Source: an uncultured bacterium
Lineage (GTDB): Bacteria; Babelota; Babeliae; Babelales; Vermiphilaceae
Direction: 5' to 3'
NCBI GenBank assembly: GCA_963713925.1
Contig: OY970212.1
Location: forward strand, 1,184,001-1,248,000
Length of the DNA: 64,000 nt
Numbering within the stretch: position 1 is the stretch's first letter; each line of letters opens with the position of its first letter. A program made the translations under genes and the position numbers. Of this stretch, positions 52,210-56,143 are shown piece after piece. The notes below the pieces were generated by a model. That model searched no databases. It was not told the origin of the DNA and saw nothing but the letters and a program-made list of their open reading frames with translations.

Positions 52210-54087
52210 ATGCGCATTTTTCTTTTTATCATCCTATCGATCTTTTCAATACAGCAGATTTCATCTTATTATGATCCGTATGATCCAAACAATAACGGCC
52301 CCAATCTTTTGGATCAAGGCGAACACAAAAATCATAATTCCAACAATGATGAAAGAAACCGAAAAAAAGGCCCCATTACCAACATTCCGATTATAAACGT
52401 GATTATTACAACGGCGGCCATCGGTTATTTGACGTATCTGGAAATCAAGAAAGTTCCGGAGCATATAAACACGCTGAAAAAGTGGAAAAAAAAGTTTATA
52501 GGTGACAATCACACGGTTAACGAGTCCGGACCTTATACCGTGCAATTGTTTGAACATTACTTTGAATTAACACCACGAGAGTATCAGGAATATAAGAAAT
52601 GTTGGTTTAAATGGGATTTTTACGTAAACAATCTTCGCAGGCTTCTAGATTGCGGCAGAGCGTGGGATATATATTCCTCAAAGCCTATACGACCAAAACC
52701 ACAGCCACAGATTTCAAATGCACCGCAACGGCAATCAGAGCCAAAGCAGCCGTCAGAGTCGCAAGTCAAACCGGAACAAAAGCTTGAAGCACCTCCAGAA
52801 GTACCTCAAGTAGAAGAAAAATATCTCATTGTTCATGAACACTTCAGAAATGATCTGCCGGAGTTGCAGAAAAATAATCAAAAATTGCGTTGTTGGATTG
52901 AAAAAAATATAAACCCCAACGAAGTTCCCGATCGATACAAAACAGATATCTCAACCCTTTCCAATGATGTTTTTGCGGTTCATGAGTTTAATCTGCAAGA
53001 ACTGAACGACTACATCAAAGAGCACAACCTTGACCCGAAAGCATGGGAAAGGCTCTACGGCAATGAAATTCAAAGAGCCTTGCATAGAGATTCAATTCAG
53101 CTCCTTGAGCAAAGCCGAAACCCATTTAAAAGTTGGCTTCAGGAATATAAAGAAGATCTTATCAAAACGATCGATGCCGGCAGAGCGCTCAACGAGCTCG
53201 GTTATTGTTCAAAAGCCACCAAGGTTAATAACTTCTGTTCTTCTTTGATGCACTACGGTAACGTCGCGCAAGAGGGAGTTGTAAACGGAGCGATTTCGCG
53301 AACCCCCACAAATCCTTGGGCGATCGGCGCCACTATTGGAGTAATAACTGCCGCCGTACTTGTTCCGGGAGTAGCGGAAGCGTTGTTAGTTTATAACATT
53401 TTGCAATGCTCATATGAATTCGGGCAGACGTTAGGGCTATTGATCTGCAAAGACGATCCGAGAGCACAAAAAGAACTTAATGAAAAATTTGAACCTTTCA
53501 AACAACGCTTTAAAGATTCCTACGGATGGGAAGACACATTATACGATGCAGCGCATGTAACCGGTGAACTCGGCGGCGATATCGTTGTCGCCAAAGCAAG
53601 CAAAACCGTGGCAAAATGTGTCGGAAAAGTTGTCGATGTAGTAAGCAAATTTCCCAAAAAGCCTCAAGGCGAAGTTGTTGCCACAACTCCTGATGGACAA
53701 AAGATCAAGGTCCCTGATGAGAGCAAGAATCAAAATACACAGCGAACAGCGACTGAAAAAAATGTCGGCAGACAGATCGCAAAGGAGATTAAACAGGCTG
53801 CAAGAACCATTGATGATCTTCTGAAAGAATGTGCGCCTTGGGACAAACAAAAAGGATCAACCAAGCAATATACAAAAATGGGAAGTTTTCAAGACGCTCT
53901 TAATGACTTTAAATCGTTATCACCCATAAATATAACCGATGCTTCTGATGCAGATAAAGTATGTTTTTATGGATACCTGTGCGATGGTAAAACTGTAATA
54001 GCTCGAAATATAAGTAAAAAGCTAGGGCCAACCCTGGAAATTCAATACCCGAATAGTAATAAAACAATAAAAATTCGATATAGTTGA
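52210..54087 (+). CDS. Putative Sec-exported polymorphic toxin with C-terminal nuclease-like domain
   Basis: Signal peptide, P/Q/E linker, hydrophobic Gly/Ala segment; C-terminal DALNDF..GYLCDG..ARN..PTLEIQ..KIRY; followed by small immunity-like genes. Confidence 0.75.
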   Translation: MRIFLFIILSIFSIQQISSYYDPYDPNNNGPNLLDQGEHKNHNSNNDERNRKKGPITNIPIINVIITTAAIGYLTYLEIKKVPEHINTLKKWKKKFIGDNHTVNESGPYTVQLFEHYFELTPREYQEYKKCWFKWDFYVNNLRRLLDCGRAWDIYSSKPIRPKPQPQISNAPQRQSEPKQPSESQVKPEQKLEAPPEVPQVEEKYLIVHEHFRNDLPELQKNNQKLRCWIEKNINPNEVPDRYKTDISTLSNDVFAVHEFNLQELNDYIKEHNLDPKAWERLYGNEIQRALHRDSIQLLEQSRNPFKSWLQEYKEDLIKTIDAGRALNELGYCSKATKVNNFCSSLMHYGNVAQEGVVNGAISRTPTNPWAIGATIGVITAAVLVPGVAEALLVYNILQCSYEFGQTLGLLICKDDPRAQKELNEKFEPFKQRFKDSYGWEDTLYDAAHVTGELGGDIVVAKASKTVAKCVGKVVDVVSKFPKKPQGEVVATTPDGQKIKVPDESKNQNTQRTATEKNVGRQIAKEIKQAARTIDDLLKECAPWDKQKGSTKQYTKMGSFQDALNDFKSLSPINITDASDADKVCFYGYLCDGKTVIARNISKKLGPTLEIQYPNSNKTIKIRYS

Positions 54088-54095
54088 GAAGAATT

Positions 54096-54521
54096 ATGAA
54101 TGAACATTGGATCAGGTGGGAACCATTACCAGGATTGAAACCTCGTTATTATATTGTTTCCGTTACAGATAACACTAAGGGATTTGAGATCATATTGGAG
54201 ACCATTAATACGGCCGAAAAAGCGGTGAGAATTTTTTTTGAAAATTCCGTTGAATCTTATCGATTGATTGATGAAAGCTATGCCGGTGGTATAGGCCCTA
54301 CAGATGAAAATTCAAAAGAATCATTTGAGCCTTGGTGTTTTTTTAAAATTAAAAATTCTAAATATCTGAAATGGTTTATTGATACGTCTGTAGGAATGGT
54401 CGAAATACGGAAAAGAAACTTCATTCATTTTTCAATCTTGGGCGAAAATTCGTATCTTGATATCATAGCAGATACGAATTCAGAACCTATTGTAGAGTTT
54501 GTAGACCGAACTATTGCGTGA
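54096..54521 (+). CDS. Putative cognate immunity protein (WxRWEP family)
   Basis: WIRWEP..F..SVESYR..E..WCFFKIKNSKYLKW..HFSI..DII..EP. Confidence 0.72.
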   Translation: MNEHWIRWEPLPGLKPRYYIVSVTDNTKGFEIILETINTAEKAVRIFFENSVESYRLIDESYAGGIGPTDENSKESFEPWCFFKIKNSKYLKWFIDTSVGMVEIRKRNFIHFSILGENSYLDIIADTNSEPIVEFVDRTIA

Positions 54522-54566
54522 CTAACTTTTTTGTCTGCAAGACTACGTGTTCAAGGGTTATTGAAT

Positions 54567-54911
54567 ATGAAATTTGATAATAAATTTTTACAAGATATTA
54601 ACATAAAATTTGGTGATATCTTCATCGATAGTTTTGAAATTAACCCAAGCCTTCCGCTTGAGGGACAAGAACTTGCATTTAGAGAAGATCTTATTCATAT
54701 AACCTTTGGAAAAGGAAATGGCGTTGATGTTGGTTGGTACCCATCAATTAAACCATATGGATTCTTCACAATCATAGTTGTTTGTAATTATGATTGGGAG
54801 AATCCCATATATAAAAAACAATGCAAGTCTTTAGAAGAAATGAAAAAATATCTCCAAGAAGCAATCGATATTGCCGACAAAATGTACCGCTCTCAATATG
54901 AAAATAAATAA
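54567..54911 (+). CDS. Putative orphan immunity protein (DVGWYP family)
   Basis: EDLI..FG..VDVGWYP..G.F..DWENP..LQEAI; paralog of 55736-56143. Confidence 0.65.
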   Translation: MKFDNKFLQDINIKFGDIFIDSFEINPSLPLEGQELAFREDLIHITFGKGNGVDVGWYPSIKPYGFFTIIVVCNYDWENPIYKKQCKSLEEMKKYLQEAIDIADKMYRSQYENK

Positions 54912-55710
54912 ACTAAAAGAAGTATCTTATGACGACAACGATGCCTATTTTTTAAAAAAATGCGGCCCGTTTATTGGCCTGAATAAATCCTACCGACATT
55001 TTGAAATTTATGATTTTGATTTAAATCGAATCAATCTTATCAATTTTAAAAAAAAGGTTCTCATTACAAGCGATTTTTTTTCCAAAGATGGAAAAAATTG
55101 CGCTTTGTATGATTATGATAATCAGCAATTTGTTTTTTTTGATATCTCACATAACGAAGCATTTTACCTTAAATTGCCCAGACATTTCCACCACGCAATC
55201 TCTTTTTTCTATTTTTGGATAAAGGATACTTTGGTCATCGTGTGCGAAAATGGAAAATTACTCAAAATAAGCGACAAAAAAATTCCATCAATCTTGGATC
55301 AAGAGGTTGCTCGATCGTCTTTTCCCGATATTTATGATTTTGTTGCATATACAAAAAAATATGAGAGAATTTTTCAAATCAGCTACGAACTTAAAAGTTT
55401 CATATCCGCTGAAAATGGCATTATAACATTTCACAACCTTAGCGAAAATAGAACATTTACCACGTCCGAGCCTAATAATAATTATCATGACATCATATTT
55501 TCGAACGGCTTTTTTGCTATTATTGCCGAAAAAGAAATCATTATTAAAAATGAACAAGATGCTCAAATTATTCCCACAAAAGACTTGGAATGGTTTTTAC
55601 GAGGCGTCTTCATAAACGAGGAAAATAAATTATTTTTTTATCTTCTTTCAAGCAACTTTGCTAATCATCGTCTATCTAAAATCATGCAATACGAGATTCA
55701 ATTAACTTAA
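54898..55710 (+). CDS. Hypothetical beta-rich protein within the immunity array
   Basis: Long, very AT-rich ORF overlapping the upstream gene; aromatic beta-strand pattern. Confidence 0.6.
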   Translation: MKINKLKEVSYDDNDAYFLKKCGPFIGLNKSYRHFEIYDFDLNRINLINFKKKVLITSDFFSKDGKNCALYDYDNQQFVFFDISHNEAFYLKLPRHFHHAISFFYFWIKDTLVIVCENGKLLKISDKKIPSILDQEVARSSFPDIYDFVAYTKKYERIFQISYELKSFISAENGIITFHNLSENRTFTTSEPNNNYHDIIFSNGFFAIIAEKEIIIKNEQDAQIIPTKDLEWFLRGVFINEENKLFFYLLSSNFANHRLSKIMQYEIQLT

Positions 55711-55735
55711 CAATTTTTATGTCTGGAACTTTCAC

Positions 55736-56143
55736 ATGTCTAAAAAAAGACATTTTCAAAGCAAACATTTGGCCGATATTGATCTGAAATCAGGCAAACT
55801 TGAATGGGATAGTTTTGCAGTTGATCCAACAATCCCATATGAAGATCAAGAGTTTGAACTCAGTTGTTGTTTGATTCTAATCGGATTCGGAAAAAAAAAT
55901 TGCGTTGATGTTGGCTGGTACCCCGAATTCAATACAAAAGGATCATTCCGAGTCGTTGTTATTCTTAATTCCGATTGGGACAATCCTGTTTATGACAGAT
56001 GGTGTAAAGCTTTCAAATCACTCAAAAAATGCTTACAAGAAGCGATCAACATTGCCGATCAAATCTATAATTATAAACGAGGAATTAACATCACGGAATT
56101 TTATGAGCCGGGAGATCAAATCGATCCTTCAATACTCGCATAA
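55736..56143 (+). CDS. Putative orphan immunity protein (DVGWYP family)
   Basis: DSF..P..P.E.Q..FG..VDVGWYP..DWDNP..LQEAINIAD. Confidence 0.65.
   Translation: MSKKRHFQSKHLADIDLKSGKLEWDSFAVDPTIPYEDQEFELSCCLILIGFGKKNCVDVGWYPEFNTKGSFRVVVILNSDWDNPVYDRWCKAFKSLKKCLQEAINIADQIYNYKRGINITEFYEPGDQIDPSILA

Follow-up and report, generated by a model that had tools for sequence, protein, structure and literature searches.

The window examined here, a stretch of 64,000 nucleotides from an uncultured Vermiphilaceae bacterium of the phylum Babelota (Dependentiae; assembly GCA_963713925.1, contig OY970212.1, positions 1,184,001 to 1,248,000), carries at 52210..56143 a gene for a 625-amino-acid (aa) protein trailed by an array of small genes, and raises the question of what this protein does and why such an array should follow it. 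The original prediction was a polymorphic toxin with its cognate immunity gene and a set of orphan immunity genes. The open reading frame (ORF) 52210-54087 is indeed followed by four closely spaced genes on the same strand, and independent genomic tests, namely the shuffling of scaffolds and tips, the range of carriers, and the tip-specific neighbours, uphold the prediction, with the locus almost certainly being a polymorphic toxin system.

The toxin gene (52210..54087, plus strand, as are all features of the locus), delineated from the ORF list and by homology, begins with a likely Sec signal peptide without a lipobox (aa 1-19, 52210..52266), read from the sequence alone by Arg2, hydrophobic residues 3-14 and a polar end, with hydropathy placing hydrophobic stretches at aa 1-19, 56-74, and 376-394. 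A linker rich in P, Q, and E (about aa 158-200, 52681..52809) leads into a conserved scaffold (aa 201-511, 52810..53742), and the protein ends in a tip of an unnamed family (aa 528-625, 53791..54087), predicted by homology and modelling to be a BECR-like RNase. Towards the C-terminal limit of the shared region, a TP[ED]G motif (53686..53697) marks the likely exchange or processing boundary. A lipoprotein anchor was considered and rejected, with a lipobox-like pattern present in just 3/64 scaffold relatives and absent from the 625-aa protein.

The evidence for a polymorphic toxin lies first in the scaffold, which is common to nine genes of the genome and carries Ntox21, two Ntox17, EndoU, and unnamed domains as tips, with a CdiI-family gene following one of the copies. 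Compared with its closest paralog (C1:175703-177727), the 625-aa protein is 78% identical over aa 1-50, 24% over aa 151-200, 62–76% over aa 201-350, and 40–42% over aa 351-500; beyond the TP[ED]G motif the two proteins cannot be aligned, the values after aa 500 (18–32%) being those of a forced alignment. Amongst the complete C-termini taken from relatives, 66 in number, 27 pass the Pfam cut-off, five match below it, and 34 are without a match, with the named tips comprising EndoU (11), Ntox17 (6), Ntox21 (4), Ntox35 (4), Colicin_D (1), and Cytotoxic (1). All 27 are RNase-type, with Ntox17 counted as an RNase family. The expectation that relatives would join the same N-terminus to other C-termini was therefore borne out by many tips on one scaffold, and this modular architecture is a matter of direct observation. 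Furthermore, a small ORF on the same strand lies right behind 63/67 scaffold genes, compared with 69/189 long ORFs of the genome.

The scaffold is widespread in the phylum, for which a set of 261 small genomes, all of one order, was searched. A profile built from eight sequences finds it in 75 genomes and a 64-sequence profile in 121, corresponding to 90/189 high-quality genomes and 79/145 genera. Outside the phylum, 50 genomes chosen for carrying the tip were searched, a small sample rather than a full survey; the single match shares its coordinates with the phylum member G072, and thus none of 49 outside genomes carries the scaffold. The matching entry (L101, identical to G282) has the same matches as G072 and falls within the phylum set of the window. 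The locus is very unlikely to be a cassette that is silent or in decay, or a toxin-antitoxin pair working inside the cell, without any extracellular role. Relics accumulate in reduced genomes, and a sister gene (22015/22860) is broken and another (C1:545101-547324) appears split, but ORF 52210-54087 is intact with all conserved tip residues present, its signal-like N-terminal region keeps the 78% identity to the paralog, and the scaffold is retained in long open frames throughout the 121 genomes.

Several scaffold loci have features of their own. Four full-length scaffold genes lie in tandem in another genome of the phylum set (L135, G232:C1:1005000-1019500) and bear tips of three kinds, including Colicin_D. 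In the source genome, two tandem Ntox17 scaffold toxins (L008, C1 1047639-1055427) are each followed by several genes of an unnamed family with a YWKYPEDK motif, and a scaffold toxin and its neighbour (L003, C1 601549-605582) adjoin a gene that by eye resembles a serine recombinase, which hints at a mobile element. The apparently split toxin gene (L004, C1 545101-549418) bears a restriction-endonuclease-like tip, as judged by eye from its motif, and is followed by four small genes related to one another and by a WxRWEP gene that is broken.

The converse pattern, one tip on many carriers, is seen for the tip family, of which the genome has five copies, HINT-type proteins carrying three and the scaffold the other two. 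The family occurs in 30/261 phylum genomes and returns 1,517 matches amongst 1.84 billion representative sequences. The tip lies nearly always at the protein end among the 150 matches listed (read by eye), and a scan of 79 longer ones of these found 20 PT-HINT and six RHS carriers, and one each of TPS/haemagglutinin, PT-VENN, MafB, LXG, and PT-TG. The named genomes bearing the tip belong to Bacillota, Pseudomonadota, Bacteroidota, Myxococcota, Spirochaetota, and Acidobacteriota. In Neisseria gonorrhoeae, the tip and a WxRWEP-family gene form a MafB-CT-type cassette of a maf island (L067, 4824-5681), and a PT-TG protein of a Paenibacillus larvae phage (L069, 1255-3683) ends in the tip, with a WxRWEP gene behind it and lysis genes adjoining. 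At a further locus (L045, 2241-2474), a full toxin-immunity pair is followed by a short orphan fragment of the tip that has a WxRWEP gene to itself. Word-based homologue searches, which are insensitive, gave three, five, and no matches, and blastn against E. coli genomes gave none; Pfam and NCBIfam hold no model for the tip, the scaffold, or the three downstream families.

A second copy of the tip family lies within the window itself, at 22860..23153 (plus strand). The likeness claimed between it and the end of the 625-aa protein was confirmed over the last ~98 aa (41/97 residues identical, 42%, E 3e-23), as was the claim that the N-terminal regions are unrelated, with no mutual BLAST match. 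The ORF upstream (22015..22872, plus strand) is the 5' piece of a toxin gene of the HINT type that is interrupted by a change of frame near 22860-22872. The gene is considered broken because the tip at 22860 is in a different frame from this ORF, whose stop lies at 22870-22872, a point missed in the original prediction. The N-terminus of this piece is HINT-like, matching Pfam PT-HINT below the cut-off (E 0.084) and sharing 43% identity across 84 aa with two paralogs that score above it. Two WxRWEP-family genes follow on the plus strand (23150..23995), at 23150-23557 and 23579-23995, and are homologous to the gene behind the 625-aa toxin (27%, E 9e-15 and 24%, E 2e-9 respectively). A second toxin class is apparent in the genome, consisting of a signal peptide, PT-HINT, a linker, and a variable tip, with a small gene behind each copy (C1 4592-6172, 37366-39168, 74454-76001, and 555946-557688, plus 22015 of the window).

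The third line of evidence comes from the neighbours. The WxRWEP gene directly follows the tip in 5/5 copies of the genome and, using a profile built from the source genome only, in 29/29 loci of other phylum genomes, 28 of these within 130 bases. It also follows the tip in 55/68 further loci (52 with the first profile), a set from which one locus without a called tip was dropped and in which one match, L101, is a phylum member, and is found at 0/64 scaffold loci with other tips. These pairings are observed directly, and the recurrence of the gene behind the tip in 29/29 and 55/68 loci makes the WxRWEP gene of the locus (54096..54521) very probably the cognate immunity gene, as judged from gene order and homology. 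A predicted complex of the tip with the WxRWEP protein (score 0.04, mark 0.32) gives no verdict.

The remaining genes of the array appear to be tied to other tips. The two DVGWYP-family genes (54567..54911 and 55736..56143), described as paralogs in the original prediction, share 49% identity, and members of their family lie directly behind an HGHPI-motif tip in the source genome (five copies) and in two other genomes (G199 and G232); at L160, where the tip is of similar look, there is no DVGWYP match. The locus of the closest paralog (L001, C1 173965-177727) combines an unnamed HGHPI-motif tip, which has no Pfam match, with five tandem DVGWYP genes. The 270-aa gene (54898..55710) has relatives in nine other genomes. 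In three cases the relative immediately follows a scaffold toxin whose tip has a D..H..HLE motif, one such tip passing Pfam Cytotoxic; five others are placed farther along arrays of small genes, and the ninth could not be recovered. Since relatives of the DVGWYP pair and of the 270-aa gene sit behind other tips elsewhere, all three are likely orphan immunity genes, the first DVGWYP gene for an HGHPI-motif tip and the 270-aa gene for a colicin-E3-like (Cytotoxic-type) tip, and the array likely comprises one cognate and three orphan immunity genes.

What the tip might do is suggested by its predicted structure. The model (pLDDT, a predicted local accuracy score, of 94) comprises a helix, a strand (24-29), a second helix (33-42), and five strands, with an eight-residue loop between strands 3 and 4. 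Residues R599, S602, T608, E610, R623, and Y624 are kept in 84–89 of 89 sequences, with R599/S602 and T608/E610, which flank this loop, kept in 88–89. The BECR-like superfamily is described in the available text of bioRxiv 10.64898/2026.08.28.747851 as having a helix, strand 3, a long loop, and strands 4-5, with an optional N-terminal strand and with polar residues conserved where strand 3 ends and strand 4 starts, and a Ser or Thr on strand 4 is given as a BECR trait in PMC3482391. The modelled secondary structure of the tip and the placement of its R/S/T/E residues fit this superfamily. The nearest named ESM Atlas cluster is Ntox47/PF15657 (0.81), a lead only, with no Pfam match of the tip to Ntox47 or PF15657. 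Barnase, EndoU, colicin E5/D, and RelE are absent from the top rows of the structure searches with the tip, and a viral fold library returned nothing at E<=0.001. The prediction of a BECR-fold RNase is better stated as BECR-like: topology and residue placement agree with the BECR-like description, and no canonical BECR structure was recovered among the top rows. The tip is probably an RNase.

The same searches bear on the alternative of a polymorphic toxin whose tip is not an RNase, being some other nuclease, a transferase, or a binder of small molecules akin to the teneurin ABD and bleomycin-binding proteins. The top structure matches point this way, with the teneurin ABD at Z 7.2 followed by nucleotidyltransferase cores and glyoxalase/bleomycin-binding proteins at Z 4–5.4, as does the absence of a catalytic histidine. 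However, all of these Z values lie within the range that the search tool calls common, the tip has no conserved acidic metal-binding triad, and 27/27 named tips on the scaffold are RNase-type, with Ntox17 assigned as above. Additionally, canonical BECR folds reportedly escape structure searches that start from BECR-like proteins (bioRxiv 10.64898/2026.08.28.747851, available text), and we regard a tip other than an RNase as unlikely.

The teneurin match deserves separate consideration. The ABD (PDB 6FB3, 2616-2710) is the top match in all three PDB structure searches of the tip, covering it whole (Z 7.2, root mean square deviation 3.3, 81 aligned residues, 25% identity, 21–25% across searches), with the next unrelated structure at Z 5.9; Z values of 7–8 are common for unrelated models according to the tool's own note, and the sequence profile of the tip finds no teneurin match at E<=10. 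The ABD occupies the toxin position behind a YD shell. In contrast to the tip, it is followed by Tox-GHH and has no known activity, being described in the available parts of PMC6425310 and PMC5851990 only as bleomycin-binding-like with no known ligand, and the origin of the teneurin C-terminus is left open in PMC13018210, as far as its available text goes. That the ABD descends from this bacterial tip family, and that the scaffold is moreover a self-contained entry device of a phylum-wide class, is doubtful. Were it so, a BECR-like RNase toxin behind a YD shell would have been domesticated together with Tox-GHH in animal teneurins, and intracellular Dependentiae would exclude co-infecting bacteria by phylum-wide scaffold toxins. 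The match nevertheless offers a starting point for tracing where the teneurin C-terminal region came from.

How the toxin might reach a target depends on the export machinery of the genome (1.32 Mb; the window lies on one contig of 1,318,721 bases), which encodes signal peptidase I, GspC, two GspD secretins, two Omp85 proteins, and four ATP/ADP translocase genes, with VipB not found. This resembles other Dependentiae genomes, described as being of 1.0–1.5 Mb with translocases and two gspD copies (PMC4776705, available text), and the phylum likely lives inside protists. In the mechanism we infer, Sec and signal peptidase I would export the 625-aa protein, which would then pass out of the periplasm via the type II secretion machinery or vesicles, a route to which we give an even chance. 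The helical domain of aa 201-350 would anchor or target the toxin, and the hydrophobic helices of aa 350-480 may help the tip to pass through the membrane of the target. Once released after the TP[ED]G motif, the tip would cut tRNA or rRNA with a histidine-free R/S/T/E/R/Y site. In the producer, the WxRWEP protein would bind and block the tip, with the orphan immunity proteins guarding against kin bearing other tips. The target would quite probably be rival bacteria within the same protist.

The same genomic setting could instead accommodate effectors directed mainly against the protist host, for example its mitochondrial or cytosolic RNA, or an addiction device, with immunity shielding the producer during synthesis. 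The genome looks obligately intracellular, with its 1.32 Mb and four ATP/ADP translocase genes, and its nine full-length copies could be used at the same time, in the manner of the Amoebophilus APD effectors. Furthermore, a cultured member of the Dependentiae secretes nucleases and buds vesicles in its host, and addiction has been proposed for the toxin systems of a Bodo endosymbiont (PMC6561590 and PMC8163844 respectively, available text). Set against this, orphan immunity to tips absent from the locus is sensible only under attack by kin, the host-directed toxins of endosymbionts are usually without immunity genes (PMC3482391, in the part available), and the named scaffold tips are families of interbacterial systems, with the tip of the locus itself ending CdiA, LXG, MafB, and RHS proteins. 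We hold a host-directed or addictive role to be fairly unlikely.

The account preferred here, of a Sec-exported carrier with an RNase tip, aimed at rival bacteria and accompanied by one cognate and three orphan immunity genes, is as a whole moderately probable, and several results weigh against it. The entry step is a guess because the scaffold has no structural match and the C-terminal half of its model is of low confidence: the helical half (aa 201-350) is modelled confidently and the hydrophobic half, with long, partly hydrophobic helices at aa 350-480, weakly (mean pLDDT 73). Searches with the scaffold in Pfam, among PDB sequences, and by fold give nothing beyond generic helical bundles (best Z 6.9), and its Atlas matches are all under 0.9. 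The PDB sequence searches of the analysis return nothing or only PPR/TPR repeat artefacts. An N-terminal hydrophobic stretch is present in 54/64 scaffold relatives and, by the same loose hydropathy test, in 253/488 background ORFs. No histidine is conserved among the 89 tip sequences, unlike in many BECR-like families, no solved BECR toxin is found by fold search at E<=0.001, and the only toxin in the top 50 fold matches is CdiA-CT 5T86 (Z 4.5). A WxRWEP neighbour is missing from 13/68 further loci, one of these at a contig end, and the array holds no orphan toxin cassette, unlike maf islands.

The proposal that the locus represents a new class of toxin is upheld for its parts and not for its architecture. 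The carrier scaffold, the tip family, and the immunity families are new, and the 625-aa protein lacks an RHS, CdiA, LXG, or PAAR delivery domain as claimed, with no near-cut-off Pfam or NCBIfam match at E<=1. Delivery of 52210-54087 by an RHS, CdiA, LXG, or HINT system was likewise rejected, none of their hallmark domains being matched in Pfam or NCBIfam. The architecture is not a new class because signal-peptide toxins with lineage-specific N-domains are already known, with MafB-N, Microscilla-N, and APD1/2 described on Sec-exported toxins (PMC3482391, section 37). The closest likeness is to MafB/MafI of Neisseria, described in the available text of PMC4287609 and PMC9970974 as having a signal peptide, a lineage-specific N-domain, a short motif, and a variable tip, with an immunity gene directly behind and HINT versions in existence, and one MafB protein (P0133) bears the same tip family. 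In contrast to MafB islands, the present system consists of numerous scattered genes of full length, not of orphan tip cassettes, and its scaffold is spread over a phylum rather than a genus. Membership of MafB itself was rejected, as PF06255 (MafB-N, DUF1020), which P0133 matches, is not matched by the protein or the 64 scaffold sequences, and an opposite-strand NUDIX gene rather than a mafA-like lipoprotein gene lies upstream.

Microscilla-N and the APD1/APD2 domains of Amoebophilus also resemble the scaffold, being constant N-domains after a signal peptide with variable C-termini and many copies, with the APD bearers being amoeba endosymbionts (PMC3482391, available part). Compared by description, APD proteins have a lipobox and are host effectors, whereas scaffold genes are mostly without a lipobox and as a rule have immunity genes. 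Among bacteria inside protists, complete polymorphic toxin systems are known from Odyssella and Ca. Bodocaedibacter (PMC3482391 and PMC8163844, as available), both single alphaproteobacterial lineages and exceptions, whereas here they extend to about half of the genomes of another phylum. For the tip, the BECR-like superfamily (Ntox47, PF15657) shares its layout and loop-flanking residues (bioRxiv 10.64898/2026.08.28.747851, available text), the tip differing in having no conserved histidine. Ntox7/Imm8 is similar in that Ntox7 is a predicted BECR tip, has the motif DG...R, and occurs on MafB, CdiA, type VII, and HINT proteins (PMC3482391, available part). Compared by motif text, Ntox7 DGx+xhR has four residues between Gly and Arg and the DGRxVxVR of the tip five, and, by description, the WE-aromatic motif of Imm8 is C-terminal and WxRWEP N-terminal. 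The tip family is new as a named family, although it may already be listed in the supplement of the bioRxiv preprint.

A literature search, with most subscription journals outside its scope, found no report of polymorphic toxins in Dependentiae, and the word 'toxin' is absent from the available text of PMC4776705 and PMC6561590 on this phylum. Intracellular bacteria have been described as mostly lacking immunity genes, Odyssella being an exception (PMC3482391, available part). As about half of the genomes in a small-genome, likely intracellular phylum keeps a multi-copy toxin-immunity arsenal, regular competition inside protists is implied. The locus and its relatives supply a new carrier domain, three immunity families with assigned partners, dozens of unnamed tips, and a widespread new tip family that reaches Neisseria, Providencia, Enterococcus, and Bacillota.

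The GC content is 0.30–0.36 in the tip and array compared with 0.42 in the scaffold. In contigs of two DNA sequencing runs, the locus is covered in short pieces only, with no variants seen. The locus is flanked upstream by the NUDIX gene (51423-52109, opposite strand) and on its other side by a phosphoglycerate-mutase-like gene (56167-57768, read by eye), and an Rfam scan of the window returned two tRNAs only, at 7649-7733 and 8030-8100.

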